In this document: piece after piece, positions 567 through 47,862 of the stretch
Layout: each line of letters begins with the position of its first letter
Numbering within the stretch: position 1 is the stretch's first letter
Made by a program: the position numbers and the translations under genes
The notes under the pieces: generated by a model
What the model saw: the letters and a program-made list of their open reading frames with translations, nothing else
What the model was told of the DNA's origin: nothing
Database searches by the model: none
Origin: Bugula neritina
Lineage: Eukaryota > Animalia > Bryozoa
Assembly (NCBI GenBank): GCA_964035545.1
Contig: OZ037767.1
Location: forward strand, 15,690,998-15,754,997
Length of the DNA stretch: 64,000 nt
Direction of reading: 5' to 3'

Positions 567-936
567 ATATTCCTGAGTACACATTTAATCAAAGAGAGTG
601 TCAATAATAGTTACTGCATGTAGACTTTGCTCCTGGTAAGTTGATTAGAATAATTTACATTACCGTTCTTTTTACTTAAGTGATGGAAAATTTTTATCTA
701 GAGAGCAACCCTGATTGAAAACTGAATTTATCTAAAGTTTGTTACTTCAAGTACTATACAAATATTATTAGTAGGTTGGCATTTCTTATCTTACCTTATG
801 TGTGTTTAATATAAATATAAAACTTGAGATAAACATTCTCATGTGATATAATGTAGTCTGGAGTTATATCACATGACTGGACGATTTCTTCTAGAGTTAG
901 GGTGGGTTACCTGACAGCCCACACATATATAACCTA

Positions 937-9500: not shown

Positions 9501-9807
9501 TGTGGTGGCTCGTGGAGCTACCAGCAGCACGGTACGCAGGGTCACATAATTGACTCGGAACAATGACAGCCAATTAGCGGCTTTAATAGTTAGTAGCAGT
9601 AGTAGTTTTCCCGCTGTTAGTCAGTCGAAGTTAGAGTGCTGAATAATCTAGATGTGTGAAATTATTAGATGTGTTTTTATAGTTTTTGTAATGTGTTATT
9701 GTGTTTAAAATATATACTCGTTCACTCGACTTATCCTGGTGAAGTTCTCTAGCAAGTAATTAGACTCTCTGAATTGCATATCAACCCTAATTCTGAAAAT
9801 CATAACA
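9501..9807 (+). repeat. 5' LTR of element 1
   Basis: TGTGG...TAACA; direct repeat of 18172-18478. Confidence 0.97.
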
Positions 9808-9808
9808 G

Positions 9809-9826
9809 TGGTGGCAGCGGTGGGAT
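9809..9826 (+). promoter_or_regulatory. Primer binding site, tRNA-Leu
   Basis: TGGTGGCAGCGGTGGGAT is complementary to the 3' end of eukaryotic tRNA-Leu (..ATCCCACCGCTGCCA-CCA); 1 nt after the LTR. Confidence 0.9.
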
Positions 9827-9840
9827 AGTGCACATCCAAG

Positions 9841-10794
9841 ATGGAGACTGAAAACGCTGGAATGCAACCACCTGCAGTAGAAGGTGAGCGTAGAGACAAT
9901 GCTGTAGGGACAATGCCTGTCAACCATGTAGTAGAAGAGCGAAGGGTTCCGCGGGAACTAACTGAAGACCGCTACCGGTTAAAGGCGCTCACCTTCATGG
10001 GTGAAGAAGAGGTGGAGCAATTCATCCAAGAGTTTAGCGACGTAATGGACGTCGCCCAGTGCCCCCCTAGGGTGGCCCTGCTGAAGCTTAGAATGGCATT
10101 GATGGACAAAGCCAAGCCTTATGGACTGGGAGTAGACATCGATAATATCTTTGCTTCTCTGCCGGCCCGCTTCGGCCTCTCTGCTACAGATGCCCGGGCC
10201 CGACTACAAAGGCTGCGGCGTGATCCCCGCACCCCGCTACGGGAACATGCCGCCGCGGTCATGAAGCTGGCACAGATCACGTACAGCGACTTGCCCCCAG
10301 CCAACTGCGAGAGGTATACCCTTGACGCTTTCATAGCATCTGTCGACGATCTGGGTCTCAACCACCAGTTTCTAGCTAGGGGAGTCACCACCGTTGAGGA
10401 TGCTCTGACAGAGGGGGAAGCTTACCTCCTAGCCAATCAGATGCATAAAAGTCGCGGGAACTCCCGTCAAGTGGAGGTAGACCGCGCGGACACGGCAGCG
10501 GGACGAGAGGAGGAAACCTCCGCGACGGCTGCCGTGGCTCAGTTAGCGACGGCATCGAAAGTCACTCAACTGACTGACATGCTGGCCAAACTGATAGCAA
10601 CACTGACACCCCAAGCCCCAGTAGGTACCGCCGCTGAGCCCGTACGGCCACCGGCGCCGCCACCGTGGGAAACGGTCAGTTTTTGCTGGGAATGCGGGAA
10701 TCAAGGACATTTCCGCAGGTACTGTCCCTTCCTAACTCCGGGGTTAAACTACCGCGGCCCGCAGATGTTCCCACCTTTTGCGGGCCGACGATGA
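9841..10794 (+). CDS. gag: Gag, 317 aa, with CCHC zinc knuckle
   Basis: Intact ORF directly after the PBS; CWECGNQGHFRRYC knuckle near the C-terminus. Confidence 0.92.
   Translation: METENAGMQPPAVEGERRDNAVGTMPVNHVVEERRVPRELTEDRYRLKALTFMGEEEVEQFIQEFSDVMDVAQCPPRVALLKLRMALMDKAKPYGLGVDIDNIFASLPARFGLSATDARARLQRLRRDPRTPLREHAAAVMKLAQITYSDLPPANCERYTLDAFIASVDDLGLNHQFLARGVTTVEDALTEGEAYLLANQMHKSRGNSRQVEVDRADTAAGREEETSATAAVAQLATASKVTQLTDMLAKLIATLTPQAPVGTAAEPVRPPAPPPWETVSFCWECGNQGHFRRYCPFLTPGLNYRGPQMFPPFAGRR
10743..10787 (+). promoter_or_regulatory. -1 ribosomal frameshift signal (G TTA AAC plus stem-loop)
   Basis: pol is in the -1 frame. Heptamer 10743-10749, 5-nt spacer, then stem CGGCCCGCA(10755-63)/TGCGGGCCG(10779-87). 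Heptamer conserved in element 2. Confidence 0.75.
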
Positions 10795-11888
10795 AACCTC
10801 CAGGGAAAAAGAAACGCAGGTCGCCCAGACGGGTGCCGGGTGCTGGTGACCCAAGATGGCAACAGCCGCGACGGATCAGCAAGGGGCTCCGCCCCGCCGC
10901 TACCTTTTCCATGCCCCTCCACAATCGATTCGACGGGCTACCAGCCCAAGAATCTATATGGGAGCCAGCAAAGGTAGCCGGAAATCTAGCCTCGGCACCT
11001 CCGAGGCCCACTTACCAACATCCCAAGAGGCCTCCCTCGCCATCCAAGGCGAGGGAGGTACTCCCTGCAAGAGTAAGGCCTGAAGAGAGAGTTCAGGTGC
11101 AGCCCCATGGGAACAGCTATTTCTTGCCCGGTAAATTGGAAGGCAAAGCTGTTACTTTTCTCATTGATTCGGGCTGTACCACGAACCTCCTAAGCCGCCA
11201 ACTCTTCGACACCCTCAGTACTAGGGTCAGGGGCGAGATGGAACCATACGAGGGGGAGTATGGCACCCTAGCTGACGGGTCATGCCTTCCCTTCTATGGT
11301 ATAATTGAGTTGACGGGACGAGTCCGTGATCAAACGATCCAAGAGACGTTTATCGTCAGTCAGCTCAAGGAGGACGCCATCCTCGGGATGCCATTCCTAA
11401 AACGGCACGGATGTCACATCGACTTTAGTAAATCTGCGATGGTGATGTCCGGGCGAGAACTCGCCTGCGTCGACAAGTTCGGCCGCCCTTTAGTAGGAGG
11501 TGTGCAGGTGGTACGTAACTGTACCATACCAGGCCGCTCCCAAGCTACCATTCACTGTAGGGTGAACAGTAGCCGGATCTTTGGACTCGGGGTAGTCGTG
11601 GGCACGCACGAAAGGGTCCAACTTGCCAGCAGTCTGAACCAACTGACTGAGCAAGGGGAGATTTTAGTGCAGTGTGTCAACCCCTTTACCGAGTCTGTCA
11701 AGCTTCCGGCTGGGTCTATGCTGGGCCGGTTTCACTTCGTTCAGGAGGAGGACGTGGGCCCGTCGCTGGGTGATGCGACGGAGGCACCCCCTCAACACCC
11801 TACTCAAAGGCGAGGAACAGTCCCAACACATATCCGAGAGTTATATGAAACAGCCTGTGGTGGCTGCGCGAGTAACAAGGAACGCCAA

Positions 11889-12645
11889 CACAGGATAGTT
11901 AAGGGCATCTTCACGAAGAATATTATAAATTTCTCTCAAAATGTAGTTTAAGTTCTTGAATAATATGGCTTTGTGGGTGTCATGCGTGTTGCCTACTTGC
12001 AATTGTTTAGCCTAAGATCAAACTACAACCAATAAGCAGCAACCTTCATTAGGACTGCGTAATCTATCAACATTCCATTATGGGTGCTACATGAACAAAG
12101 TACAAAGCAAGCTATTCATTATAGCCTGCCAGCTAGTAAGCCTGTAATTAGTATGTACGCGCCAATATCTTCTCACCCCTACGTGCTCATTGAAGCGTGG
12201 AGTACTGCGCGCAGCTAATTTTCTATGAAAAAATATAGCATTTTCAGTGTATAAATCACTAATTTATGGGCAATCTAGAAGAGTTATCGGCAAAAGAAAA
12301 AAAACTTGCACTGGAGAAATATCTCAGGATTTCAGCAGTGCAATTTTTATTCAGATATCATGTTTTCCTGCTGAGATATTTTTTTGGTACTGAAAAGTCA
12401 GCTTTTCAGGCAAAATTGGCCAAAATTGGGCAGTTTTCTGTTTATAACTTTGCAACAAAAATGAAAATTGAAATTTCCAAAAAACTTACACTGGGGAAAA
12501 AGAAGATCTAAAACATAGTTTTTAAATTTTGACTCTAGCACAATTAGGTGAGATTTTATTTTACTGGTACTGAATTCTTATATGATTACAATGCAAACCT
12601 CAGCAAGGCAGTTGCAGCTAAAAGGTTGCCCTTAACTATCCTGTG
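11889..12645 (+). mobile_element. 757-bp MITE (CACAG termini, 2-bp TSD) nested in pol
   Basis: 19-bp TIR CACAGGATAGTTAAGGGCA; TSD AA; removal restores the pol frame (..ERQ|AMAK..). Confidence 0.95.
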
Positions 12646-15550
12646 AAGCTATGGCAAAGTTACTACGCGCTTACGGTGATGTGTTCAGCAGCGGAGATCA
12701 TGACGTGGGACTGACTGGAGTTGTCAGACACGAAATACCGCTGACTGCAGGGACGGCCCCTGTCCGGCAGCCCACACGCAGGCTGGGGCCGGAAAAAGAG
12801 AAGGAGGTTAGCCGACAAGTACGGGATTTTCTGGACCGCGGCCTCATAGAGCCCGCCCATAGTGCGTGGAGCTCGCCGGTCTCACTGGTCCAGAAAAAAG
12901 ACGGCAGTTGGCGGTTCTGTGTGGATTACCGCAAACTCAATAGCGTAACCATACAGAACGCCTGCCCTCTACCTCGTATTGACGAGTCACTGGATGCCCT
13001 AGCCGGCAGCAAGTACTTCAGTACGTTAGACTTGCTAAGTGGCTACTGGCAAGTTCCTCTGAGTCCCGACGCCCAGGAGAAAGCGGCGTTTATCACACGG
13101 GACGGCTTGTGAAAGTGGAAGGTGTTGCCTTTCGGGCTAACCTCCGCCCCAGCCACCTTCCAGAGGCTGATGGAGCAAGTCCTCAGCGGACTCCATTGGA
13201 AGACGCTGCTGATCTACCTCGATGATGTCATCGTTATCTCCCCAGACTTCGAGACGCATGTCAGTCGTCTGCGGGAGGTCTTTGAGAGAATCCGAGGTGC
13301 CGGTCTTAAGCTCAAACCTTCCAAGTGCGCTCTGTTGCAGCCGGAGGTCAAGTACCTGGGGCACATTGTCGGTCGAAACGGCGTGGCAACGGATCCCGAA
13401 AAGGTACGGGCGATAGAAGACTGGGTCACCCCCCAAGACTTGACCGGACTTCGGGCTTTCTTGGGGCTGGTAGCGTATTACATACATACCAGACTTTGCG
13501 GGCATAGCACAGTCGTTAAACCGGCTCACCGCAAAAGGGGTGACGTGGCAGTGGACCCCGGTCGAACAAAGAGCGTTCGACCGCCTCAAGGGTTGCCTAC
13601 TAACGGCACCCATCTTGGCCTACCGAGACCCCGCTCTGGAGTACATCCTCGACACTGACGCCAGTGACCAGAATATTGGCGCTGTGCTGTCTCAAGTGCA
13701 GGAAGGTCGAGAAGTAGTAGTAGCCTACTACAGCAAGTCTCTCTCACCCACTGAACGAAATTACTGCACTACCCGCAAGGAACTGCTGGCAGTAATCAAG
13801 TAAGTGAAGCACTTCAGACCATACCTATACGGCAGGAAGTTCCTGGCTGCATACGGATCATGCCTCGCTGATCTGGTTGTGCAAGAGAGCAGAGCCCTCC
13901 AGTCAGGTCGCCCGGTGGCTCGAAATCCTAGCTGAGTTCTCGTACCGGATCGAACATCGACCGGGCAAGAGACACAGCAATGCGGATGGTTTGAGCCGCC
14001 GACCTGATAGAGGTTGCAAACAGTGTCTCAACATCAAGAGGAGGGACGGAGGTCCCCCGCGATGCGAGTTGGAGACATTGGCTCACCACGGAGCACCATT
14101 TGACTGGGACCAGGGTCAACTCAGGCAGGAGGTTGACGAGTCCCCGGAGGTTGTACAAAATCTCCGCGCCAATCCTGTACTGGCCGATAATGTCCAGGAG
14201 CTGAAGAAGCTCCAAGAAGAGTTGCCTGGGGTAGTGGCAGACATATATCGGGCCAAAAAGGACGGGCGACGACCCAGCGAGGAACGTATACGGCAGGGAT
14301 GCGCCGAGTTCTGGCTACTTTGCCAGCGTTGGGACTCGCTGAGGTTCGGGCAGGATGGTCTATTGACCAATTCTCTAGCTGCCAACGGCAGACACCCGGA
14401 AAGGAAGAGGGTGGTCTGCCCCAGTGTCATACGCCGCGAGTTAATTTGGGACACTCACAAACAGGCCCACGCAAGAGTCAAGAGAGTGATCTCCAAATTG
14501 CAACTCCGGTGGTATTGGCCCAAAATGGGGCGGGATGTCCGGCTCAGAGTAAAACAGCGCAAAATCTGCCAGGCCAGCAAGCATGGCCGTCTCCCTGGTG
14601 AAGCGGGACGGCGGAGGCTATATGCTGGCAGGCCTTGGCAAGTGGTAGCTGTTGACTTGGTCGGACCCATGCCCCTGACCCCCAGAGGCAATAGTTGGAT
14701 CTTAGTACTGACCGACCACTTTACTAGGTGGGCAGACGCTCTGGCTATCCCAGTTGCGTCAGCCCCAACCGTGGCCAGGGCGCTAGACCAACATGTATTC
14801 TGTTATTTCGGGCTTCCCGAACAGATACACTCTGATCAAGGCGCGCAGTTTCAGTCCCAACTGATGAGCGACCTTTGCTGCCTCTGGAGAGTAAATCAGA
14901 GCAGGACCACCCCTTACCACCCCCAAAGTAACGGGGGGGGGGGTGGAGCGCAATAACCGAATGCTAGGTGATGCACTCCGGAGTCTCCTCCTCGGATGCA
15001 GTCAAGAGGAATAGGACACGGTATTGCCGCAAGTCATGCGTGCATACCGTAGCACCCCACACACCAGTACTGGTGAGATCCCAAACCTCTTGATGCTCGG
15101 GAGAGAGACCCGGGTTCCTGACCAGCTCACCTACTATGTTCCAGAGCTAGACAACTCGATTCACGAGTATGCCAGTGAACTAGTGGAACGGATGAAGGTC
15201 GCACACGATATACTGCGCAAACAGCAGTGGAAGGTGCGACACAAAGAGTCCGAGGAACCACTCTTCTACCAGACGGGAGATAAGGTGTGGATGGTCAATT
15301 ACCATAGGCGTCGCGGACAGGCGGCTAAGCTACAGCCTAAGTTTGTGAGACCCTACGTGATCGTCGAGGCGATGCCCAACCATACGTACAATATTGAGCG
15401 CTCAGGACAGGTGTCTATTCAGAATGAGTCTTGCTTGAAGCCGTATTGGGCTAGCCCTGACGCAGTGGGAGAAGCCCCCCCCCCCCCGTTGTTGGAGCCC
15501 AGAAGGCAGACAACAATGCGTGGGCGGCGGCGGCAGGGACGTGAATATGA

Positions 15551-16306
15551 CACAGGATAGTTAAGGGCAACCTTTTAGCTGCAACTGCCTTGCTGAGGTT
15601 TGCATTGTAATCATATAAGAATTCAGTACCAGTAAAATAAAATCTCACCTAATTGTGCTAGAGTCAAAATTTAAAAACTATGTTGTAGATCTTCTTTTTC
15701 CCCAGTGTAAGTTTTTTGGAAATTTCAATTTTCATTTTTGTTGCAAAGTTATAGACAGAAAACTGCCCAATTTTGGCCAATTTTGCCTGAAAAGCTGACT
15801 TTTCAGTACCAGTAAAATATCTCAGCAGCAAAACATGATATCTGAATAAAAATTGCACTGCTGGAATCCTGAGATATTTCTCCAGTGCAACTATTTTTCT
15901 TTTTCCAATAACTCTTCTAGGTTGCCCATAAATTGGTGATTTATACACTGAAAATGCTATATTTTTTCATAGAAAATTAGCAGCGCGCAGTGCTTCACGC
16001 TTCAATGAGCACGTAGGAATGAGAAGATATTGGCGCGTACATGCTAATTACAGGCTTACTAGCTGGCAGGCTATAATGAATAGCTTGCTTTGTACTTTGT
16101 TTATGTAGAGCCTATAATGGAATGTTGATAGATTTTGCAGCCCTAATAAAGGTTGCTGCTTATTGGTTGTAGTTTGATCTTAGGCTAAACATTTGCAAGT
16201 AGGCAACACGCATGCCACCCACAAAGCCATATTATTCAAGAACCTAAACTACATTTTGAGAGAAATTTATGATATTCTTAGTGAGGATGCCCTTAACTAT
16301 CCTGTG
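15551..16306 (-). mobile_element. Second copy of the same MITE (756 bp), opposite orientation
   Basis: Reverse complement of 11889-12645; TSD GA; removal restores ..REY|EVVIPR.. Confidence 0.95.
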
Positions 16307-16861
16307 GAAGTGGTCATACCGCGGGAGGAAGATTTGGTGAGAGATGAGCGACCGCTTTTACCAACAGAAGCGCGTCTGCCACCGCCAAATCTGATTCCAT
16401 CACTTCCAGAAACCGAGCCGGTTCCGAAAGTGCAAACCCCCACGGAGGGAGGGGCTCCATCCGGAGAACAAGAAGAAGTGACCACTAACAGTGCAGTAGA
16501 GACGCCACCAGAGGCCCCTACTAACACACCGACGAGTGCGTCACCTCCCCTGGAGCGGGGACAATGTACGAGGCAACCCCCCGCATACTTGAAGGACTTT
16601 GTATGTGACTGCATTGAAAGCGGCGCCTATGAAAGTCTAGGGGAAAACCGTACGGGAAAAGTATCGAGCAAATGTGGGAGTTGTCAACACCACGGAAATA
16701 TCAACTTTTGTCTCGGCGGAAGTAGAAACAAAATTCATCCGCCGGGTGCACAAAGTCTTAATCACGCACCCCAACCACGTTGCTCGATCTTTTCATACGC
16801 TGATGCAGTCAAGAGTAGACGTGTTCCTAATCAGTAGTCCAAACCATTTCACAAATTCAGT

Positions 16862-17995
16862 ATGTCTTACGACAACAGATCGTGGGGTGAGTTAACTATA
16901 TCTTGATATGGAAACTAGATTGCATCGCTCAGCTCCGACTCACTGAGTCAAACGAGCTGGAGATAGGCTAGTGAACTACCGTGGTAAGAACTCAGTTTGA
17001 CTTAGAGATTTTACAATCTCATTGCATACGTGTTCTATCTGACTATTCACTACCATAAATCTCTACGAGGTAACTGAACGAGAAGTTGCCAGGCTGTTCA
17101 AGCTGACAACACTGCAGTATATTATACTAATGCTGTTGAAACTCTTTCAGGTTACACTCGACTCGTTACAACCAGGGTACGGGATAGAGCACTTCCCGCT
17201 CCGCATCCTGAGGAGTATACCAATGGTGACCGGCGGTGGGTGTCGCCGGAAACAGAGGGGCAGCTAGAAACAGCATGGGGATCCAAAGGAAGGACGCGGT
17301 GCCAGATTTGTGACGAGGAGTGCGCCTCTCACCGCTCCTTGAAGCTGCATGTCAATGCCCACCTCTTACTCACATTCTGCCCCTGTGGATATAATGATGT
17401 CTACCTCTACCCCGTCACCAGACACCGAGCGACGGGCTGTTTCTTCGGAGAGAATTACGTAGTGGATGCCAAACTCTATCCAGAATTCATAACTCTGTTG
17501 TTGGCCGTCTTGACCTCAGGTTTCCAGCGCGTACTAGACTATGCCAGGCAACAATCTCCATTGGTATCCGACCGCCCTCAGATTGTGTACACCCCCGAAG
17601 AGTTTGCCTATCCCGAAGAAGGAGAGGTCTCTCCTACCCCGACGAAAAGACGGACCCGGTCTCTAAGTCCCCCTCTTCGTCGCAGACGGACACCGTCCCC
17701 AGACCCCGCTCGCCTGGCTACTGTGGAGGAACGCCTCTTCCGACTGCAGGCTGAATTTACCCAGCTAGCACCGGATCTGCTTAATACCACGACGGGATTC
17801 TTTCAGTTAAAAGGCTCGGTTGGCCGGATCAAAAGCAAGTTACGTACATGCCAGGCCAAACATCGGCGTGCCCAACACTGCCTCTGGTTCTGCTGCCGGA
17901 ATGATCCACAAGCCTCGTCTTCTTGGGGATCCAAGACTATCATGCAAATGCTTGACTGCTCGACAGCTCGATTCCTTGTCCAATATTACAACTAA
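16862..17995 (+). CDS. Spliced accessory ORF of element 1: join(16862..16886,17151..17995); C2H2 + CxC-H-C zinc fingers, Arg/Ser/Pro tract, coiled coil
   Basis: ATG TCT..TGG G|GTGAGT donor, TACTAAT branch point, TCTTTCAG| acceptor; phases match and the frame is open into the 251-aa ORF. CQIC-x12-HVNAH, then CPC-x12-H-x4-C. Same architecture in element 2. Confidence 0.8.
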
Positions 17996-18171
17996 CCGGT
18001 ATTCCTTCTCTATAGCTGGCCAATTGTATGTAACCTGCTGTTATAATGACTCTGTCTGTTATTGTGTATCTTTATATATGTTATGTCTTTTCTTTTGGTC
18101 TACTGACGTACGTGGTTAATGATGAAATATTTTTCTCTATTAGAAAGAGGGCTTTCTGCTGGTGGGGGCGG

Positions 18172-18478
18172 TGTGGTGGCTCGTGGAGCTACCAGCAGCA
18201 CGGTACGCAGGGTCACATAATTGACCCGGAACAATGACAGCCAATTAGCGGCTTTAATAGTTAGTAGCAGTAGTAGTTTTCCCGCTGTTAGTCAGTCGAA
18301 GTTAGAGTGCTGAATAATCTAGATGTGTGAAATTATTAGATGTGTTTTTATAGTTTTTGTAATGTGTTATTGTGTTTAAAACATATACTCGTTCACTCGA
18401 CTTATCCTGGTGAAGTTCTCTAGCAAGTAATTAGACTCTCTGGATTGCATATCAACCCTAATTCTGAAAATCATAACA
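18172..18478 (+). repeat. 3' LTR of element 1
   Basis: Preceded by the PPT, followed by the ATAT TSD (18479-82). Confidence 0.97.
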
Positions 18479-19736: not shown

Positions 19737-21036
19737 CTACAACAGATACAACCATGTTCTGCTACTAAATTATTTACACTATGTAATATATCAATGTATC
19801 CTTAGAGTGTTGACTGCAGTATATAGATAGTAGAGATAGCATATATATCAATGTAGTTATAGGAAAACAACAAAATTGTATATATAGTACACAATTGTGT
19901 ATTATTATAGTAGAGTTATGTAAAGGTGATAATAATAAAATAGAGGAATTGTAAATGAGTTCACAGAAATACCTTTTTCCTTTATATATTATTTTTATGC
20001 GTATGGAAGTTTTCATTTTTTATTGGAAGCAAGTATTTTATAATTATATAATGAGTTACAATTGTGATGATTGTTAGAGAAATGTCATTTAGCTCATAGT
20101 AAATTTTTTGCAAGATATTTTGAATGGAGCCAACATATTATAAGCCACCGCAAAACTATGTTTTAAAAAATCTACTCTTACATATACTTGTTTGTTTGCA
20201 TTTGCAAAACTAAATTACTGATTAACATTCCATCATATATTATATAATAGTCTGAAACATAAATATCACAATGTTACAAATAACATAGGGCTGTAAATAT
20301 TCTAACTCTTCCATTAATTATTGCTTTTTATTTAGCGCCAAGACAATAGCTGACTTCAATCGGACTTTTATAACGCTTAATCCTAATTTCATGTAGGATA
20401 ACATTTATGGTACGAAAGTTCATATAGAAGTTGAAAGTTTATATTACTCCAAATATTATATTATGAACAGCTTATGTAAGCATGTTATAATTTTGTATAG
20501 CATGATTGTCTACAACCACTGCTTGGTAGTTGGTACAACATCAGATGCGTCATGCCGTATTATTTAAAGAATGCAACAGGCTGAGTAATATGAGTTGTGT
20601 TGTCCTATCAATAATTATAATGATTTCTAATAGTATTCCCCATACACTTCGACTTGGTAACGCAATTGTTTGTTGACAGGTCGATTTAAAATGAGTAATG
20701 GGAGTGAATGGAATTTCCCATCTATTTCCTCGTGCATTCCCTGTACTACGGAACTGCATATTGTACAGGCTAGTTATAGTTAGAGTTGATAGATAAGCGC
20801 TACACAAGCAGGCACGCCATATTGAGAGGATTCTACTTAGTAATTTACAGAAAGTTAACGACTACTGTTATACACGTCTGAAAGTTCAGAGCTCAAAATG
20901 AAAAAATAATTTATAAAATAGTATTATATACAGTCTGAGGATAGACATTGTGTATTGCGGAGTTTTCTAGTCTAGCATATTAGTCTATTTCAAGAGCTGC
21001 TAAAGATGGAGAGTTCTTACTAAAAGGTCAGTTGAA

Positions 21037-24000
21037 ATGAATCAGAATGAAGTGCTAAAGTTCAGTCAAATACTCACTAGTATTAGAGATAGAGATGATG
21101 AGGGGAATATTCTGACTGAGCTGAAGAAGTGCCTTTCTTTCATATCATTAGAAGAGAGATATAGACTATTGTGTGAGGAATATAGAACAATACACTGGGC
21201 AGCTGAGAAAGGGTATACTGACACCATCAAATGTCTACTAGATGATGTATCAGTAGAACAGAAGGTAGAGCTACTCATGATACAGAACGGTGGAGATGAG
21301 ACAGCTATACACTGTTCAGCAAAGAGAGGACATACTGACATCATCAAATATCTACTAGATGGTGTATCAGCAGAACAGAAGGTAGAGCTACTCATGATAC
21401 AGAACAGTGAGGATGAGACAGCTATACACAGTGCAGCATGCAAAAGACATACTGACATCATCAAATGTCTACTAGATGGTGTATCAGTAGAACAGAAGGT
21501 AGAGCTACTCATGATACCTAATGGTAATGGGTGGACAGTTATAGAAATTGTAATAGGCAATGGGCATACTGACACCACCAAATGTCTACTAGATGGTATA
21601 TCAGTAGAACAGAAAGTAGAGTTACTCAAGGCAACTGAGTGTTATGCTATACACTCTGCAGCATACAGAGGACATACTGACATCATCAAATGTCTACTAG
21701 ATGGTGTATCAGTAGAACAGAAAGTAGAGCTACTCAAGATACAAGACGTGGGGGATGATAAGACAGCTATACACATTGCAGCATGCGGAGGACATACTGA
21801 CATCATCAAATGTCTACTAGATGGTGTATCAGTAGAACAGAAAGTAGAGCTACTCAAGATACAGAATGATGATAAGACAGCTATACACATTGCAGCATGC
21901 GGAGGACATACTGACATCATCAAATGTCTACTAGATGGTGTATCAGTAGAACAGAAGGTAGAGCTACTCATGATACCTAATGGTGATGGGTGTACAGTCA
22001 TAGAAATTGTAACAGATAATGGGCATACTGACACCATCAAATGTCTACTAGATGGTATATCAGTAGAACAGAAGGTAGAGTTACTCAAGGCAACTGAGTC
22101 TTATGCTATACACTTTGCAGCATACAGAGGACATACTGACATCATCAAATGTCTACTAGATGGTGTATCAGTAGAACAGAAGGTAGACCTACTCAAGATA
22201 CAAAACTGGGATGATAAGACAGCTATACACATTGCAGCATGCGGAGGACATACTGACATCATCAAATGTCTACTAGATGGTGTATCAGTAGAACAGAAGG
22301 TGGAGCTACTCATGATACTTAATGGTGATGGGTGGACAGTTATAGAAATTGTAATAGGCAATGGGCATACTGACACCACCAAATGTCTACTAGATGGTAT
22401 ATCAGTAGAACAGAAAGTAGAGTTACTCAAGGCAACTGAGTGTTGTGCTATACACTCTGCAGCATACGGAGGACATACTGACTTCATCAAATATCTACTA
22501 GATGGTGTATCAGTAGAACAGAAGGTTGACCTACTCAAGATACAAGACTTGTGGGATGATAAGACAGCTATACACAATGCAGCATGCGAAGGACATACTG
22601 ACATCATCAAATGTCTACTAGATGGTATATCAGTAGAACAGAAGGTAGAGCTACTCAAGATACAAAGCTCGGATGATAAGACAGCTATACACATTGCAGC
22701 AAAGAGAGGTCATACTGACACCATCAAATATCTACTAGATGGTGTATCAGTAGAACAGAAGGTAGAGCTGCTCAAGATACAGAATAGAGATGGTAATACA
22801 GTGATACAGGAAGCAGCTAAGACTAACCAAACACAGATTCTCACTCTTTTGATGAGTCAGCTGACAACAGAGCAGCAGCTAAAACTTTTTAATTTATCAA
22901 ACCATGAAGAACGAACATCTTTAGATGTTGGTGTAAATAATGAAATATTTGGACTCCAGAGAATTGCCTCTATAACGGAACAAAGAGATGATGCAACAAA
23001 CCAAGTTCCAGGTAAAATGACCAATTTCTAAACAGACTATTTTAATTAAGGTCAACTAATCTTAAAACAACATAACTGTGATATGTTAGCAGTACGAAGG
23101 AATATCATGCAATAATGAAAAGTAAATTCTAAAGTTTCAAAAGTCATGTTTATATTCTCCATCTATGATTCAGAGAACCTACTGTTTAGCCTCGGGTGAC
23201 AATTAGCGAATGAATGCCCTGGAAACCTTTAAAATACTACATAAATGTTTTCAATGACCAAAAAGCATAATTAAATAAAGACAGAAATTTGTTCATTATG
23301 CTTTGTCACAGGTAACAATAGATTGATCATTTTTTGAACTAAACACACAGGTCAATAAAAGAGTGCAATTTAATTATTTTTAAAACAAATACAGATGCGT
23401 TTTTGAAATTTAGCATTGCCAACTTTGGAATTTTGTAAATGATGAAAAATGCAAAAAAAGTGAAATTAGTATTTCATAATAAATAGGGGTGACTGGGGGG
23501 GGGGGGAGGGGACACAACGGGCTTCTTTTTAAGTTTTTTGCTCATTAGTCTGTCTTTTAAGTTACTAGTTCAATAATCTCTAGTCCAAATGCTACACCAG
23601 TTGTCTATTATAGGTATCAGTTGGTTGTTTTTATCTCTTTCACAACTTTTAGAATAATGAAATTTTCATGAGGAGAGAAATGGCCCATGGTGCCCCAATT
23701 CTAGTCATTATTGCAATACCTTTTTATTAAAAAAAATCACGATTCTAAGTCAATATTATGTTCTCTCACAATTTGACTGGTTTTTTTGTGCCCCTATATG
23801 ACCTTTGTGCACCCATTACCCCATACTAAAAAGTTGCTAATTTGACAAATTTTAAAAAATAAATTATATTATAATTATTCACCCCACAAACTGAAACATT
23901 TAATTGTATGTAACATTTTGCTGTAATTAATCCTTGTACTCATATTATTTAAGTGCCTATAACAATCATCTATAAATTTAAAAGCCCAACATAGCCCGTT

Positions 24001-27000
24001 CACATATTTTATATTATACACGTTTAACATTTTTTTAAACGCAGATTTCTGGAAAGAGCAGACACATCACCATCCTTTGCACAGTGGTGAGTTTCCACAT
24101 TCATCACCAGGTTTGCCACATCAACCAACATCTACACAGCACTGGCTGCAACCAACACACCTAAGACAACCATCTTATCTACAAACGGCGCCACAGTTGA
24201 TCCATCTTCAGCCACCTTGGTTTCAACTCCCTTCACAACACATGCATGCTGAGCCACTGAACAATACTGATGGTTCTTTTTCTATGCCGTACCTACCCAC
24301 ACCATCAAAACCACAGTGGTGTCCTAAATCAGAGAATTTCACAACCAGCTTACCATCTCAGCCTCTTCAATTGAATGCCCCATCTTTCAACCATTCAAAG
24401 GACTGGTCTCTATTCAACCCTCCATCTTTTAACATGCCATCTACAAACCCTTCTCATTTGAATGGTGACAGCAACATCCACAGAGAAGCAGACACTCAGT
24501 TCAAACAGCCACCACATTCAATCTCCAACTTTTCTAACAATGCTCCACCAGAAGTACAAATGCAGAAAAAAAGTTTTAGAAGCAGGGAAATAGAAAATGA
24601 ACACAAATCCGATTTGAAATTGAAAAGTAACACAAATTCTCCTGTTATTGACGTTGCACAAGAAAGCAATTCGTTTATTCAAGTTTTTGACTTGAAAAAG
24701 CAAACAAACAAAGTTTCACACAACAAAAGACCTGCAGAAACAGCTATGACAGTTTTACCCCCAAATAAATATCAAAGGACTGCATGTAAGTTATATAAGT
24801 TGGTAGTCTGCTAGTCTTTGCTGATTCTTGCAGCTTACTATAAAAATTTATTTGTCCTAAATGTTGAAAATTATAAAATAGTTAGTGAGTTGTTAAACAA
24901 ATGATAATTGACTGCCATATTTTAAGGTTTTTTACTAAATAAATTATTTTTATGAATCAATGTCCTCAACATTTATTATAGCTAAAATATTATTTGTATT
25001 ATCTTTACAGTTGAAGCACCAACTCAGTCGACTACTCTCTCACATGATTTAACGTCAGATACGGGATCATCACAACTGAGTCACTTAAACACTGTGGCAC
25101 CACACCAAGCTTTTTCAGGTCTTGAAGCGCCGCATGAACATGTGTCAGCAGAAAACACAATGGAGAACATGGCGCAGTCAACTGAGGTTCCTTCTTTGAT
25201 AGATGCCGCGGTTGCAGCACCACATCAAGATATACCTGCTTATACTGTAGCGGTACACCAAGCAGTTTCACTTCCTACTAGATCAGATGGGCCATTCAAG
25301 AGTAAGTTAATTGCGTATTTGCCTCGAAGCCTACATATTTGTTACATTGATGATGTGTAATTACACTAAGATTAAAGTTGGCTTTGTGATCATGTGACGG
25401 GTTTTTCATGCAGGTAAAGTGAAAAACTGTAAAGTAACTGTAAAAGTTCAGGGAGAGAACACAGTCTACTCATTTGAAGATCACATGACTATTGGAGATC
25501 TCAGGCGTTGCATAAAGGAAGACTGTGAAACTGGTGTATTGTGTCGTGTAGTTGATGAAGGTAATGTGCATATGTGTGATGGTATAGTAAAAAGATGAAA
25601 ATAAATAGCTTCATATTAAAAGAAATATAGTTAGATTTTAGACTTTTGAATTAAAAATATTTTATTATAATCTTCTAATAAACTAGCCTAGAAACTTAAT
25701 TAAAAATTGAAATACTGTAAAATAGTTTTGCTCCCACTGAGATTCAACCCGAGAACTCCAGCTTGCAAGCAGGCGTGCAACCACTATACACCACAGAGGG
25801 CCCTGAGTAAACTAGAGCGCTACTTCCCACTTTGTTCTCAAAAACTCCACTGGCCCTTCTTCTACACCTTCAGTCTTCAATTGCTCCTTTGGCTTTTTAA
25901 CTCCCTCGGAGTGCTACTATACTACAAAAAAGGCCGAAATCGCTTATAAAACTTTTGCCCTCAGTGGGATTCAAACCTGAGACATCCAATTTACAAGCAG
26001 ACTGTTACCATTACATCACAGGGGACTACTGGGTAAACCCAACACTGCAAATACTGCATAGTATCCGTGCTCAATATTTTAATATATATGGCTAAATCTC
26101 AATATCACCATATTATTCTGCTGTTGCATTACTCATTATTGTTTCATAACGTGTAAAAGTAAATAAATGAAGATCTTCAGTAGGTAATCCTTTGTTTGAA
26201 AGCTTTATATCATTTTAGATAAATCAAGATGCTCTGACTCTCTCAGACTTGGATTAGTAGATGTGCCATTCTCAATATTTGTTGAGAACCAAGAAACACT
26301 GGTTACAGGTTTGTTGATATAAATTATAAATTACAGTAATCATGAATAAAAATGTAACATTCTATTCACATTTTATTTTAACATGTGTTTATAAAGTTTC
26401 CTATATACCTCAAGGCTACCCATTACGATAGCATGCATGACTTTTGTGTATTTTGTAGAACGAGTCAGTGACAAGCAGGCTGGCCAAGATTTGTCAGCTC
26501 CTAATGCTGCAACAAGTTTTCAATATGGTATGACAACTCTTACTATATATAATGAGATAAGACAACCCTTACTATATATATATAATGAGCAAAGACAACT
26601 CTTACTATATATAATAAGATAGGACAACTCTTACTATATATAATAAGATAAGACAACTCTTACTATATATAATGAGATAAGACAACCCTTACTATATATA
26701 ATGAGATAAGACAAATCTTACTATATATAATAAGATAAGATAACTCTTACTATATATAATGAGATAAGACAACTCTTACTATATATAATGAGATGAGACA
26801 ACTCTTACTATATATAATGAAATAAGACAACTCTTACTATATATAATGAGATAAGACAACTCTTACTATATATAAGATGAAGAGGCAATTGTAGAGTTTG
26901 ATATATATGAACAGCTGTTATATTACACTCAGTAATATCTCCTATAGCTGAGATATAATACTAATACTTATATCTTCTCATAGCTTAATATGTAAATATT

Positions 27001-27899: not shown

Positions 27900-29494
27900 A
27901 TAATTCTTCAACATGTCTTTACCTCACCTACGTTGACATTCTAACTGGTTGTATATGCTGCATGTACTATTAGCTTTAAGACGTTATGATCAAGTAAACT
28001 ATAACTGGTAATAGATTCTATTCATGCAGCCATGTACTATCATGATATAGCAAGGAAATATTATACTTTGTAATAGTTTTGTGCTGTATTTTGATAAACT
28101 TTTTTAGACTTTATTATTGTTTAGTTTTTACCTGATTTGGTTGATTATATATTATATTACTTTATATTATATATTATTAGTTTTTATTGTTTTATAAAAG
28201 TTGATACAGCATATCATTATTATATACAGTGTTTGTTTTTGCCATACAATTATCAAAGAAAGCATTTTGAATTACATAACGAATAGAAATATTATTATGT
28301 GTAACAATTAGGCTGTTATATGTTATAGAGCTTGATTGATTTATGAATATATTACATGCATTAGTTTTATTCTAAAATAGTTTTTACAGCCCACAATAAC
28401 AATATTTCTTACTATATAGCCTATATATCAATTATTATATTATACTATAATTCTGTTACTGCTTCACTACATTACTTCATCATATTTTTAAATTTTGCCT
28501 TATACATATTATTTGTTATCTTGCATGCATGGGTTTCAGTGATAAATTTACTACTTAGCATCTAAATATATATTATATAGAATGCGTTAAAGCTATACAA
28601 ATATCAAATAAAGCTGAGTGTAAAAAAGTTCACTATTTTGGTGCCTTAACGTTTTTCACTTAGTAATAATACAGTCAGAGATACCAATCACAGTTTATGC
28701 TGTCACATGTTACTAGAAGGACTTATGATTATCCTTTATAACATATTGGATGCTTCTTTGATGTTTTAAACTGACGAAATAATATAAAAAGTTAGTCAAG
28801 AAAATTGAATGTTATCTTAGCGAATATTTGATTGGCTGATTTAGTAAAACACAGGCATGGCTGTTGTTTATATTAAAAACGTAGTCATTGACTTTTTATT
28901 GGCTGATCAGACAAATAATATGTATTTGCAGTCAATAAGTGAAATTATCACTGGGATATTATGAACATCTAGAGTTTTCTACTTCTGCCCATTTCATATA
29001 ATATAGGTTTCTGTTGTGTTCTTTCAATTACCTTAATTGATTATGGTGTCCTTTTTTGATTAAAATGGTATATCTACTTATATTTTGAGATAAAATACAT
29101 TGTAGAATCGATATTGTAATGGGATTACGTAGCATAATAATGGGGTCGTCCCCTCCTGTGTGGAATACTTATAACTATGTTCTACTATCCAATCAGAGGG
29201 ACCGGAAGGCAAGGTTCCGGTCAAGTGACTGTGCGCGGGTTAGCTAGCAGAAACCATGTGTTGTTGAGAGCAGGGGCTCGTGGTAGTAACATGTGTTTAT
29301 AATTGATTGATGTATTGTGGTATTTTGATGTAATGTTATAATTATTATTATCGAGTTAAATAAAGGTTATCGTACGCAAGCTCTACTAGTGATTGCTAGT
29401 TAAATTGAAACTAAATACGCAGGCAATCCACGCTTGATAATTGTGCTAAAACTCACAACAGTGTTGGCAGCGGTGGGATTTCGCGTATATCAAG

Positions 29495-30300
29495 ATGACA
29501 GATAGAGGCACAGAGCTACCCATTTGGAGGAATGAAGGTGAGGAAGATAACGTTGCTATACCTATAGAACCAGAAGTGAGGGTGCATAGGGAATGTTATG
29601 AGGAGAAGTACCGGCTGAGGGTGCCCACCTTCTCAGGTGAGGAGCCGGTGGAGCAATTCGTTCAAGAATTCCAAGATGTAATGGAGGTTGCACAGTGGCC
29701 ACCCAGAATAGCATTGCTCAAGCTCAGGATGGCACTGTCAGACAAGGCCAAGCCATACGGAGTGGGACCAGACATTGACGGAATCTTTGCTTCCCTGCGG
29801 GCCCGTTTTGGTATCTCCGCTGTAGATGCCCGGGCCCGTCTCCCGTCTCCGCAAGCAAACCGTGAGAGGTACACTTATGATGCCTTCGTGCAATCCATCA
29901 ACGACTTGGGACTCCATCACCAACTCCTGGCGAGGGGAGTCACCACGGTCGAAGGTGCGCTTGCAGAAGGGGAGGCTTACCTTCTGGCCAGTCAGCTGCT
30001 CCTACCGCTTCTACCGCGGATAACCCAGCGGTGGCCATGGTGACGCAGATGACGGTGGCATCGAAGGTCGCACAAATGACCGACATGCTAGCCGAACTGG
30101 TTTGCGCCTTGGCCCCTCTCAGCCAGCTAGACACCACCCGTGAGCTTGACGGGCCACCGGTGCAGTCGCCTAGTAGAGGACACCCCTCCTGCTAGGAGTG
30201 CGGAAAACCAGGACACTTCCAGAAACACTGTCCCCAACTTCAACCAGGGTTAAACTACGACAGCCCGCGGATGCTCCCACATCCGGCAAGCCGCCGATAA
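29495..30300 (+). pseudogene. gag: Degenerate gag of element 2
   Basis: QFVQEFQDVMEVAQWPPRIALLKLRMAL aligns to element-1 Gag; internal deletion, frameshift near 29990, TAG in the zinc knuckle. Confidence 0.88.
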
Positions 30301-32546
30301 AATCCCAAGGGAGGACACAGTGGCGTCCGCCACGCCGGACACCCGTCTGGGACCTCGCGGAATGGCCACCAGGACGGCAAGCAGGCTGTACAAGCCGCTT
30401 GCCGACTGTGTTCTCAATGCCACCCCGCAACAGGTTCGACAAACGACGGATCGCAGAGTCTGCGAGGGAAAGGGCTCAAACGCCGCAAGGCGTGGCGCCA
30501 CCCCCTCTACAGCTGGTCTCCAGTCGTCGTCAAGAACCTAACCCCTCCGCCAGGGCGAGGGGGATGAGGTCACCCAAGATACCACTACACCCCCACGAGA
30601 GCAGCCTGTTTTTACCAAGACAGATAGCTGGCAAGCCTGCCAAATTCCTGTTAGACGCGGGCTGCACCACCAACCTCCTGGGTCGTTGATTCTTCGACAC
30701 AATCAGTGCTCAGATCCGAAGCAGGTTGGGACCGTATGAAGGCGATCATGGCACCCTGGCAGACGGGTCGGGCATCCCCTTCTACGGTATCATTGAACTC
30801 CCTGGGAGCGTCTGTGACCAGACCATCCAGGAGAGGTTCAGAGTCGGACAACTCCAGGAGGACGCCATCCTTGAGATGCCATTCTTACAACGACACGGGT
30901 GTCGCATCGATTTTGGCAAATCTGCGATGTTTATGGGCGGCCGGGACCCGCCTGTGTCGATAAGTTTGGCCATCCCCTAACAGGAGGAGAGCCGATAGTA
31001 CGTACCTGTACTATGCCCGGGCACTCCCGGGACACCGTCCACCGCCAGGTAGACGGTGGCCGTACCTCCAGGCCGGGAGCTGTAGAGAGCGCGCACCCGA
31101 ACGTCCCACCTGTCCGCAGCTCTAACCAGCTGACACGGAGAGGAAAGACCTCGGTGCCATGCCTCCACTCCCCCTCGGAGACAGTGAGTCTACCACCCAC
31201 CTCTCCACCAAGCTGTACTACTTCTGTTCAAGAAGATAACAGCCGGGCATCGCGAGAAACCACGACTTGAAGTCCTCTAAAGTGCCCGTCTCCAGAGCGA
31301 AGGACTGCCTCACCCCACGCCCCACACAGCCAGGGGACTCGTGGGAGAGAATCAGACGGTTGTGCAGATAATGAGAAGCGTCAAGAGACGGCCACGTTAC
31401 TACACAAAACCGAGGCTACACCTCACCTTGGGGACCCTGACATGCCCCCAGAGGCGGCACAGGACCCCCATGCCGAACCCGTCTCAGCCGCTGGCATCAA
31501 GTAGCCACGACACCTCCAGGAACATATTCCGGGGGTGGTAGCCAACGTCTATCGAATCAAACTGGAAAGGCGACGACCCAGTGACAAACAGCGGAAGCAG
31601 GGCTGCCCCGAGTGACAGCTGTACTGCCGACGTTGGAACGCACTGCGGATCGGGCCGGATGGTCTATTAACCATATCTTTGGCCGCTAACAACAAACAAC
31701 CAGACTAACCAGGAGAAGACCCTCTGTCATGCTGCCATCCGCCGGGAGTTGATAGAAGAGGTATACCAACAGGCTCAAGGGGGAGCCCAACAGGTGCTCA
31801 CCGAACTACAACTCTGGTGGTATTGGCCTAACATGGAGCGTGAAGTACGACGCAGAGTTGGGCAGTGCAGAGTCTGCTGGGCCAGTAAGCATGGCCTCCC
31901 TCCTGACAAGGTGGGGCGGCGAAGGCAAAGTGCAGAAAGACCCGGGCAAACAGAGACTGCTGACCTGGTCGATAAACCGCCCAGGATGCAACCCAAAGCA
32001 GTGGAGAGGCAGGAAAAGCCACACCCGTTCAGGAAAGTGCGCTCACCGCCTTCAGCGTGCAAGCTGCCGCCACCACTTCCTAAGTCAGGAACCGACCTGG
32101 AAGTGCAAAACCTTCTCACGGGAGGGGCTCCGTACGGAAATGCTGGGGAAGCTCCATTTGTCACAAACTGGCTGGAAGCACCACCCGTGAGACGTGACCG
32201 TCCACGGGTGAGTAAACCGCCCTGGCTGAGGACGACACTTCCCCAGGCTCCGTATGGAGATGCTAGGAAAGCTCCATTTGTCACAAACTGGCTGGAAGCA
32301 CCACCCGTGAGACGTGACCGTCCACGGGTGAGTAAACCGCTTTGGTTGGTGATGACACCTCGGAAACGGTGTTCTAGACCAATCTCCGCGTATCTCAAGG
32401 ACTTACCACGTGCCGTTCAGGGCGCGGTCAAACGTCCTACGAGGCGCCGTACGGGAAGAGAGCAAGGCGTGGGAGTTGTGAACACCACGAGAATATCAAC
32501 TTTTGCTTTGGCAGAATCTCAAACGAGATTCATACGCCGGAAGTAA
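30249..32546 (+). pseudogene. pol: Degenerate pol remnants of element 2 (protease, integrase N- and C-terminal parts)
   Basis: FLLDAGCTTNLL protease motif; LQLWWYWPNM..CRVC integrase Zn region; AYLKD tail; many stops and frameshifts. Confidence 0.85.
32126..32350 (+). repeat. 120-bp-period tandem duplication inside element 2
   Basis: GGCTCCGTA..GAGTAAACCGC occurs at ~32126 and ~32246 (peptide APFVTNWLEAPPVRRDRPRVSKP twice). Confidence 0.9.
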
Positions 32547-32652
32547 TAAGTCCTAGCCACGTTTCACAACCACGCTGCTCGCTCTTTCATCACATTGATA
32601 CAGCTTTGAGTAGACGTACGTAGAAATCATAAACATACCACTCTCATTCACA

Positions 32653-33679
32653 ATGGCTTGCCAAGAATCGAGAGGTAAGTTAATTATGTTTTTGGTACGA
32701 AGGCTAAACTGTATTAATCAGCTTAACTGTAACAGAATAAGCTGGAGACTTGGTAATAATTTTTAGTGGTGGGAATTCACATTGACTCTAAGACTGAGCA
32801 GTCTGTTACAGCAGTGGGTGTTTTCGATCAACTATTCATTAACTGAGCCTCACGAGTGTCTAATTGAGTTAAGTACCCACCAGGCTGTATAGGCCGGTTG
32901 TACTCAGTGTACCCTCTTACACTGTTATACTCTTGCAGATCACACTCGATTGACCAACTCTGGGTCACAAGACCAACACCCCCTCTCCTCCTTGGATAAC
33001 GGACCGGAAATGGACAACGGATTGCCCGCGATACTGCGTCGAAGACACAGATGGGTGCCGCGACGGACGGAGCGGCAAATTTAAGAAGCCTGGGGACCGA
33101 GTAGGTCACAACGCACTTGCCATGTATGTTACGAAGAGCTTCCCTCACACCAAGGACTACGGCTGCATGTGATTGCACACTTCCTACTACGCTTCTGTCC
33201 GTGTGGATTCCACGACGTATACCCATACCCCGTCGTGGCACATATGATGGACTGTTTCACAGGCGAAGGCTATGTAGTGGACGTGGACAATTACGACCAG
33301 TATCTAGAAGCCATTAGACCAGTGATTAAGAAGGCTTTGACCTGAGCCGCATTATCCTTCGGGTTTTATACACTGCTAACAGCCGCCCGCCAGAAATCCC
33401 CTATGGTAAAAACGGTCGCTGCGATCATACCTCGGCCAGACAACACCCCCATGGAAGCATCAGACTCTTTAGAAGAAGTGACGCCAACTCCAACCAGGCC
33501 TAACCGACTAGCAACTGTTGAGGAAAGACTCCTACGACTGCAGGATGAATTCACCCAATTCACCCGGCTTATTCAGCACTTCAATGAGCCTTAGTGAACT
33601 AAAGGGCTCAGTGGGACGCCTTAAGCGTAGATTACATGCACGGCAAGAACGCCACCGGATCCAGTCCCTGCAAAACTAG
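32653..33679 (+). pseudogene. Spliced zinc-finger accessory ORF of element 2: join(32653..32674,32939..33679), two stops and a late frameshift
   Basis: ATG GCT..AGA G|GTAAGT ... TCTTGCAG|AT CAC ACT CGA; CHVC-x12-HVIAH, CPC-x12-H-x3-C, RLATVEERLLRLQ, LKGSVGRLK. Confidence 0.8.
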
Positions 33680-34588
33680 GAGCTGGAAGTTGACAATTCC
33701 ACCCCGCATATCCCCGGGGTACTACATTGTGATCGTGTAAATGCTTGATCTGCAAACGACCAATCTGTGTAACGATCCAGATCTCTCTCTCTCTGTAGCT
33801 GGCCAGCTGTGTGCTGGCCGTCTCCTTTATCTTATTTATATATATGTCGTACGTTTGATATTTCTTTTCTTTTTCTTTGTGGATTTTCCTTACTTATGTC
33901 ATTTTTGCATTATTATACTCTTTTATTTTATCAGAAAGTGGGGCTTTCTGCTGGTGGGGGCGGTGTAATGGGATTACGTAGCATAACAATGGGGTTGTCC
34001 CCATCTGTGTGGAATACTTATAACTATGTTTTACTATCCAATCAGAGGGACCGGAAGGCAAGGTTCCGGTCAAGTGACTGTGCGCGGGTTAGCTAGCAGA
34101 AACCATGTGTTGTTGAGAGCAGGGGCTCGTAGTAGTAACATGTGTTCATAATTGATTGATGTATTGTGGTATTTTGATGTGATGTTATAATTATGTTTAT
34201 CGAGTTAAATAAAGATATCGTACGCAAGCTCTACTAGTAATTGCTAGTTAAATTGAAACTAAATACGCAGGCAATCCACGCTTGATAATTGCGCTAAAAC
34301 TCACAACAATATTAATGTTTATTAAATTCACAACAGCTTATATAGCATAAATGTCAGCGTAACTAAAATATTGTATGAAACATAGATATTATACTGTAAA
34401 CATAAATATAATTGTAAATTTTACCTGCATCAGAAAGAAATTACGTTCTTTGTCAGAAAACTCAATCAATAAGTTATTATTCTTTGTCAGAAAACTCATT
34501 CAATAAATTATTATTTGTGTGATAACTTACTAAATTAAAATTGGGGTATAGTATCGTTGGTAAAAGAACCAACAGGTTGTTTAAACAT

Positions 34589-38120: not shown

Positions 38121-38603
38121 ATTTCAGAGTCTTTTTAAGAGTTATATGCACACATAGAATAAAGTACAGTCATTTACTAATATACACCCACAAACCATTT
38201 CTGATAATGAAATACTAATTTCACTAAAGTTCAGAGCTTCCCAGCTCTATGTAGTCCTTTAATCAGCTATATACCACATGAAAAATAAAACTGTTCGTAT
38301 TTTGTAATTTAACAAAACAATATTCCACTATAAAATGAATAAAGTTTGTTACTAACTTACTGTTGTAGCATTTACGAAGTGAACTTATTGAAAAAGCTTA
38401 TAACAATGCCCACATACAACAAAAATTTTCATTTATAGATTTTTCCTTATTATTCCCATGTTGAAAATTTTGTTCTTACAGTTTAAAGTGCCGGCAACTT
38501 AAGAGATGTACTTATAATATTTACTTTGCAATTATTAAGTAACATGAAGTGTGTTATATAGCAGCAAGATCGTCGGATATAGAAAATTGGTAAAGTATAT
38601 GTA

Positions 38604-47717: not shown

Positions 47718-47862
47718 ATTACTACTACCACTGATACTAGTACTACAACTAGTACTAGTACTGCTACTAGTACTAGTACTACTACTACTACTACTAATAG
47801 TACTGTTACTACTACTACTACTACTAGTACTACTACTAGGTCTACTACTGTACTAGTACAAC
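47718..47862. repeat. (TAC)n/(TAG)n trinucleotide microsatellite
   Basis: Directly visible. Confidence 0.92.

Follow-up and report, generated by a model that had tools for sequence, protein, structure and literature searches.

Both LTR retrotransposons in the window, which is the whole 64,000-nt stretch of Bugula neritina DNA that was analysed, carry an extra gene after pol, here called ORF3, that is conserved, is not an env gene and probably encodes a nucleic-acid-binding protein. Its main route of expression is env-type subgenomic splicing, in which all of gag-pol is the intron. The accessory gene of the original prediction is therefore real, while most of the structure proposed for it, a separate intron-containing gene departing from the usual 5'-donor splicing, is wrong, as the junction seen uses a donor in gag instead. 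The role that we favour, tentatively and just short of calling it probable, is that ORF3 is a nuclear regulator of the element's own unspliced RNA, analogous to lentiviral Rev or to CERV of the C. elegans element Cer1.

Two Ty3/Gypsy elements in the window

The window is AT-rich animal DNA, and the two LTR elements inside it are richer in GC than their surroundings. Element 1 extends from LTR to LTR over positions 9501-18478 (+), with its 5' LTR at 9501..9807 (+) and its 3' LTR at 18172..18478 (+), 304 of 307 columns being identical between them, and has TG..CA ends and an ATAT target-site duplication. Element 2 extends from LTR to LTR over 29115-34308 (+), with LTRs at 29115..29460 (+) and 33964..34308 (+) that are identical in 332 of 346 columns, and also has an ATAT target-site duplication. 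The primer-binding site of element 1, which we take to be tRNA-Leu-like, lies at 9809..9826 (+), and a near-identical motif is found just 3' of the 5' LTR of element 2. The polypurine-tract region at 18150..18171 (+) of element 1 has an identical sequence in element 2. With TG..CA LTRs, target-site duplication, primer-binding site and polypurine tract, both elements are Ty3/Gypsy (Metaviridae) LTR retrotransposons by structure, and element 1 also has the gag CCHC knuckle and the pol order PR-RT-RH-IN of that group. Its gag (9841..10794, +) carries the CCHC knuckle at the C-terminus of its translation, and its pol (10638..16837, +), which ends in an SH3/GPY-F-type tail, gave Gypsy-type Pfam matches to RT_RNaseH, Integrase_H2C2 and SH3_Tf2-1 and is interrupted by stops, frameshifts and two DNA-element insertions. 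RT is missing from element 2. Locus scans detected no relatives in metagenome contigs, viral contigs or prokaryote genomes, and eight loci of 51-66% GC returned by a scan with the polypurine-tract pattern, none with an ORF3 match, were taken as chance.

The insertions in element 1 pol are inverted copies (11889-12645 and 15551-16306; 724 of 757 columns identical) of a 757-nt DNA element that is non-coding, has CACAGGATAGTT as terminal inverted repeats, is flanked by what look like 2-bp target duplications and is presumably CACTA/CMC-like; a stretch matching it occurs in protein P0161. Between the two retrotransposons, an uninterrupted ankyrin-repeat frame of 675 codons (21004-23031, +) built of 108-117-nt units is probably a host exon. 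An AT-rich interspersed repeat family at 935-6008 and 38281-42421, with direct and inverted copies of 94-100% identity, is probably a young non-autonomous DNA element. The window also holds a 29-nt tandem array (26519-26924), a TAC/TAG microsatellite (47694-47855) and a CT-rich low-complexity tract (52446-52764).

Splicing of ORF3 from a donor in gag

A donor of the form AAG|GTGAG, in phase 1, is located 43 nt downstream of the gag ATG in both elements despite their differing gag starts, and reads AAG|GTGAGC at 9884 in element 1, in a position matching that of AAG|GTGAGG at 29538 in element 2. The exon that it closes, comprising gag codons 1-14 and one base, occupies 29495..29537 (+) in element 2; by homology, the ORF3 mRNA of element 1 would start with the corresponding exon at 9841..9883 (+). 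The second exon is at 17151..17995 (+) in element 1, encoding the C2H2 finger, the second Cys/His motif, helices, linker, coiled coil and basic tail, and at 32939..33660 (+) in element 2, where it is broken by stops and one frameshift.

Contigs of four sequencing runs were compared with element 2, of which X4 (study P4) and X9 (study P5) are likely RNA by a label that the tool guessed. One contig in X4 and one in X9 have, in front of 32937, a loose end whose sequence agrees with the start of element 2 gag as far as the donor (26 of 30 letters of the gag exon, counted by eye, the final two exon letters being the same AG as that of the acceptor). Another X9 contig connects 29497 with 32934 through 35 intervening letters, exactly the length of the gag exon. 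These junction contigs represent sibling copies and not the two elements of the window. The same arrangement is found in a natural protein, P0031, in which 14 leading residues resemble the element 2 gag start (GTELPI.RNE) and are followed by DHTRL of the ORF3 exon; it alone has a gag-like leader among the 123 proteins screened. Runs X1 and X2 gave no gag-ORF3 joint among the matches listed, and no likely-RNA run was listed for the stretch of element 1. The acceptor itself appears to be shared: among 139 close relatives, 29 extend to the beginning of the exon, and 28 of these show S or L followed by D/G, which would suit a YAG acceptor, as judged on protein rather than on codons; the 29th is P0031.

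The arrangement seen thus links a 5' donor with a post-pol acceptor, and ORF3 shares it, together with the place after pol, with the env ORF3s of errantiviruses and other Gypsy elements in the available parts of PMC5408684 and PMC3383448. Gypsy ORF3s in general are typically expressed from spliced messages, as far as the accessible text of PMC5408684 describes them. As this splicing is conventional, the finding is not as unusual as the original prediction had it. The original prediction had an intron specially retained in packaged RNA; the 264 nt concerned are the 3' end of the gag-pol intron and are kept in genomic RNA anyway, so that with gag-donor splicing no 'retained intron' paradox arises.

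The motifs on which the earlier gene structure was built are nevertheless present. In element 1, an ATG at 16862 opens a candidate mini-exon of 25 nt (16862..16886, +; ATG..G|GTGAGT), followed by GTGAGT at 16887 and a CAG acceptor ending at 17150; in element 2, the ATG is at 32653, the exon is 22 nt long, GTAAGT stands at 32675 and the CAG ends at 32938. Both spacers measure 264 nt and are in phase 1, and Y/H-T-R-L follows the acceptor in both elements. The TACTAAT branch point holds for element 1 but not for element 2, which has CTAAT 78 nt upstream. The proposal also depended on the 264 nt being non-coding, and stops were found there in all three frames of both elements; a coding spacer was rejected for this reason, and the open read-through of P0030 implies another spacer length and frame.

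Use of the mini-exon donor as the observed junction was not upheld, because the junction contigs of the two likely-RNA runs and P0031 all show the gag donor. Among the joints and loose ends listed for element 2 in the four runs, none was of the 32674^32939 type, and no 16886^17151 joint was among those listed for element 1, where the compared stretch did not include the gag start. One X4 contig passes the mini-exon donor unspliced (32497-32871). In X9, the bin 32632-32782 has no cover, and the summed contig depth of the ORF3 exon is far above that of gag-pol; contig depth cannot rank parts of an element, and hence neither observation is evidence. It is doubtful, but by no means negligible, that the mini-exon is used at all, as a second route to a minor or stage-specific isoform through an internal promoter at ~16.7-16.85 kb or through re-initiation after the pol stop. 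Its ATG and G|GTRAGT align in both elements with exon lengths one codon apart, both ATGs have a purine at -3 (the two compared positions lie 49 nt apart), and the chance of such motifs is about 2% per spacer: when each spacer was base-shuffled 20,000 times, an in-phase ATG with G|GTRAG appeared in 1.8% and 2.2% of cases, two figures that are not independent because the two elements are homologous. This route is opposed by the gag donor in every listed acceptor junction, by the unspliced X4 contig and by the lack of any mini-exon-like peptide start among the relatives that reach the exon start. In addition, structure prediction places both the ATG and the donor of the mini-exon in base pairs in the two elements, with an unpaired probability of <=0.15 at eight of nine donor positions. 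The mini-exon donor may instead be a silent or a decoy donor. Decoy donors occur in retroviral splicing control.

A tandem duplication of ~120 nt in the pol tail of element 2 (32100-32350) has one donor-like G|GTGAGT site in each copy, at 32208 and 32328. A short purine-rich pol-tail segment at 16428-16468 (about 32100-32140 in element 2) is common to contigs of all four runs compared with element 1 and is possibly another cis element, e.g. a central PPT.

The ORF3 protein and its relatives

The ORF3 protein has ~260 residues encoded by two exons, 14 of the residues coming from gag, and consists of a C2H2 finger, a second Cys/His motif, helices, a linker, a coiled coil and a basic tail. Finger 1 is a classical C2H2 finger, with the spacing C-x2-C-x12-H-x3-H, a beta-beta-alpha fold and a basic recognition helix, and its profile matches C2H2 fingers in PDB (best E 5.8e-7). 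AlphaFold models were modest (mean pLDDT 65 and 63); they contained a small finger region of alpha/beta type, helices, a linker that is disordered and, at the C-terminus, a helix of 55-65 residues with pLDDT of about 70-90. The second motif (C-x-C-G..H..C), which is less secure as a finger, reached about 52-76 in one model and <50 in another. A Foldseek comparison with PDB and BFVD returned nothing at E<=0.001, the top PDB matches being C2H2 proteins. Judged by its basic patches the protein would be nuclear, and it may self-associate through the long C-terminal helix, for which a two-copy complex prediction scored 0.03.

The Cys/His pattern of the original prediction was confirmed among relatives. 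In an alignment of 123 proteins, the finger-1 ligands are kept in 65 of 75 (C50), 64 of 75 (C53), 65 of 79 (H66) and 74 of 82 (H70) covering sequences, and those of the second motif in 74 of 82 (C76), 72 of 82 (C78), 81 of 86 (H91) and 85 of 93 (C96), so that the eight residues are kept in about 82-94% of covering sequences. Within 60 sequences that are mostly 17-47% identical to the first, C63, H76, H80, C86 and C88 are invariant; in the second motif both Cys are invariant and the His nearly so, and the last Cys falls below 90% in distant relatives. The RS-like stretch KRRTRSLSPP..RRRRTPSP did not generalise, as it occurs in 2 of 73 family members, those of the subfamily of element 1; the basic motif that is shared is of the LKRRLR type, at the C-terminus of 47 of the 73.

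Between the two elements, codon positions 1, 2 and 3 of ORF3 are identical at 0.59, 0.68 and 0.43 over 108 codons, and at 0.85, 0.90 and 0.50 over the 20 codons of the coiled coil, with 11 of 23 four-fold sites identical, a codon-position pattern that indicates coding (purifying) selection. The ORF3 of element 1 is open and deviates from its relatives by lacking a short stretch that they possess and by a C-terminus ~40 residues longer. That of element 2 is not intact, with stops and a frameshift.

Close relatives comprise 54 proteins at 42-87% identity, and 146 were found by profile; one relative is labelled 'hypothetical protein [Bugula neritina]'. No Pfam family scored above the cut-off for the close relatives. 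A whole-library search gave 130 clusters (50% identity) at E<=0.001, 63 of them at 1e-10, and the double Cys/His pattern is present in 74 of 123 new library clusters. This defines an unannotated zinc-finger domain of 130 clusters, with no Pfam family, whose members include bryozoan genes annotated as host genes. Many distant relatives have long, low-complexity N-termini resembling those of transcription factors. In some, pol-like sequence precedes the matched ORF3 part, namely an integrase tail in P0270 (pairwise E 4e-5), a PR-RT linker in P0237 (E 8e-6) and pol-like sequence in P0163 and P0169. These cases were picked after the fact from 121 proteins screened, with DNA context seen for few, and suggest that ORF3 occupies the same post-pol slot in other Gypsy families. 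When ten distant proteins were looked up, two were annotated Watersipora subatra genes, one was hypothetical and seven were nameless. The ORF3 finger domain is present in the annotated W. subatra genes P0156/P0265 and P0205 and in the unnamed P0199, and is doubled in P0156 and P0199; domestication of an ORF3-like finger domain as bryozoan host genes is possible.

That ORF3 is a decayed env gene, or a host exon captured and evolving neutrally, is very improbable and already largely refuted. The position in the env slot, the env-type splicing and the host-annotated Watersipora relatives would agree with such an origin, but the transmembrane anchor and fusion-protein fold of an env-type ORF3 were not found. 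A 19-residue hydrophobic window of at least 1.6 occurs in only 7 of 73 members (0.88 in P0031), for which reason ORF3 is not considered env; the codon-position pattern is that of purifying selection, and the five Cys/His residues named above are invariant across 60 divergent sequences. ORF3 therefore differs from env ORF3s in having no shared transmembrane segment and no fusion-protein fold.

Non-env ORF3s are already known (PMC5408684 and PMC10309623, each in its available part), so ORF3 is of a known kind, and what is absent from the literature searched is its combination of domains. Bdelloid LTR elements carry ORF3s that are a GDSL esterase or a DEDDy exonuclease (PMC5408684, available sections), and sORF2 of the MDG1 group is a small membrane fusogen (PMC11952523, available sections). 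They resemble ORF3 in being extra non-env ORFs of animal Gypsy-type elements and differ from it in being enzymes or small membrane fusogens, to the extent that these two sources are accessible. The word 'zinc' has 0 occurrences in PMC5408684, and no C2H2/coiled-coil ORF3 in Gypsy was described in the literature searched, which lay outside most subscription journals, Repbase Reports and GyDB.

Candidate RNA element and possible role of ORF3

The region upstream of the acceptor, 16660..17150 (+) in element 1, which contains the end of the pol frame, the mini-exon motifs and the 264 nt, and 32450..32938 (+) in element 2, which contains the candidate mini-exon 32653-32674 and the acceptor, is a candidate cis-acting RNA element. 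Its 264-nt part is 63% identical between the elements, against a null of 50.3% on average (sd 2.7, maximum 58.0 of 200) that was set at four-fold-site identity; at the four-fold sites of gag, pol and ORF3, identity is 47% (106 of 226). The segment 16670-16830 is 70% identical, and over the final 67 pol-frame codons positions 1, 2 and 3 are equally conserved (0.63, 0.63 and 0.61), which points to constraint at the nucleotide level. The 490-nt region folds with z of -3.6 and -4.0 in the two elements, in a similar layout, and 10 of 79 predicted pairs are changed on both sides, a comparison of two sequences only; a repeat with 20 shuffles gave z of -4.9 and -2.2, the latter for element 2. Control windows of 490 nt in gag-pol reached z<=-3.0 in 7 of 13 cases, so that the spacer is no folding outlier. 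Intron windows averaged z of -1.93 (n=49) and -1.66 (n=32) against -0.15 (n=13) and -0.37 (n=14) for exon windows, and gag-pol is structured throughout. Conservation is likewise not unique to the spacer, since the 3' UTR is 58.6% identical between the elements. No Rfam match at E<=1 was obtained over 9500-34400.

The favoured role as a regulator of unspliced RNA is based on two features, a gene layout that matches that of CERV and a conserved, foldable region that adjoins the acceptor and is present only in unspliced RNA. CERV of Cer1, a Ty3/Gypsy element, lies in the post-pol slot, receives the gag N-terminus by splicing and is required for unspliced RNA to be exported, according to the accessible part of PMC10309623. 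ORF3 has the same slot and likewise gains a gag N-terminus by splicing. CERV is otherwise a different protein, with 517 residues, five exons, H, M and G domains, a C4-type loop and, in the part of PMC10309623 available, no homologues outside nematodes; ORF3 is unlike it in its size, its two exons, its 14 gag residues, its classical C2H2 finger and its C-terminal coiled coil. The likeness is one of gene layout, as no CERV-like match for ORF3 was found in Pfam, PDB or BFVD. Under the proposed mechanism, mRNA spliced from the donor 43 nt into gag to the post-pol acceptor would yield the zinc-finger/coiled-coil protein, which would act in the nucleus, self-associate and bind the element's own nucleic acid. 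Its target would be unspliced element RNA, the choice of RNA over DNA being inferred, and RNA so bound would escape splicing or nuclear retention. The spacer upstream of the acceptor would be the response element.

Several findings weigh against this role: the classical finger and the transcription-factor-like N-termini of many distant relatives, the lack of CERV or Rev homology in the three databases named above, the unexceptional folding of the spacer, the conserved 3' UTR and the empty Rfam search. The RNA labels are also guesses, and the junctions come from sibling copies, none of them of the subfamily of element 1. Classical C2H2 fingers bind DNA more often. With the same gene and the same splicing, ORF3 could instead be a Tas-like, DNA-binding transactivator or autorepressor of the LTR that dimerises by its coiled coil, an account that we hold to be less probable though worth serious consideration. 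The classical finger with its basic recognition helix and the CCAAT box in both LTRs would suit it, and foamy-virus Tas supplies a precedent (PMC13220597, in the portion available). Only 50% of the LTR sequence agrees between the two elements (shuffle mean 46%), against 52% protein identity in the finger region; any DNA site common to both could thus only be a short one, and the conserved spacer is left unexplained. Tas and lentiviral Rev are, from what is accessible of PMC13220597 and PMC10309623, 3'-encoded regulators of their own expression, as is proposed for ORF3. Both are functional analogues only, with no sequence or fold match to ORF3.

It is unlikely that ORF3 serves as an anti-silencing factor, or as a particle-assembly or RNA-chaperone helper, and not as a switch of RNA fate. 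Zinc fingers, coiled coil and basic tail could fit an adaptor of chromatin or RNP, and enzymes with a presumed helper function in the replication cycle are encoded by other Gypsy ORF3s (PMC5408684, in its available part), but searches of Pfam, PDB and BFVD revealed neither an enzyme domain nor any resemblance to known suppressors of silencing. A broader version of the RNA-regulator reading, which we regard as rather improbable, holds that a widespread zinc-finger/coiled-coil family makes a lineage of invertebrate Gypsy elements 'complex', its ORF3 binding a structured element of ~500 nt that closes the gag-pol intron on its 3' side and hides a decoy donor, and thereby switching from spliced to genomic RNA; retroviruses apart, such a circuit would be the second of Rev type to have evolved independently, and copies of the gene would have been domesticated as bryozoan host genes.

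How unspliced RNA of LTR retrotransposons escapes nuclear retention has been worked out in few cases, of which CERV is the closest in the literature searched; the ORF3 family is a second, unrelated candidate for it. Because a junction is documented by sequences, the protein is small and has two domains, and a candidate RNA target lies beside the acceptor, the regulator role is testable with reporters.

In both elements, the reading frame of pol continues without a stop beyond the motif at the end of integrase (16619-16837 and 32417-32630) and encodes a Cys/His-rich tail, in which third codon positions are conserved like the first and second.
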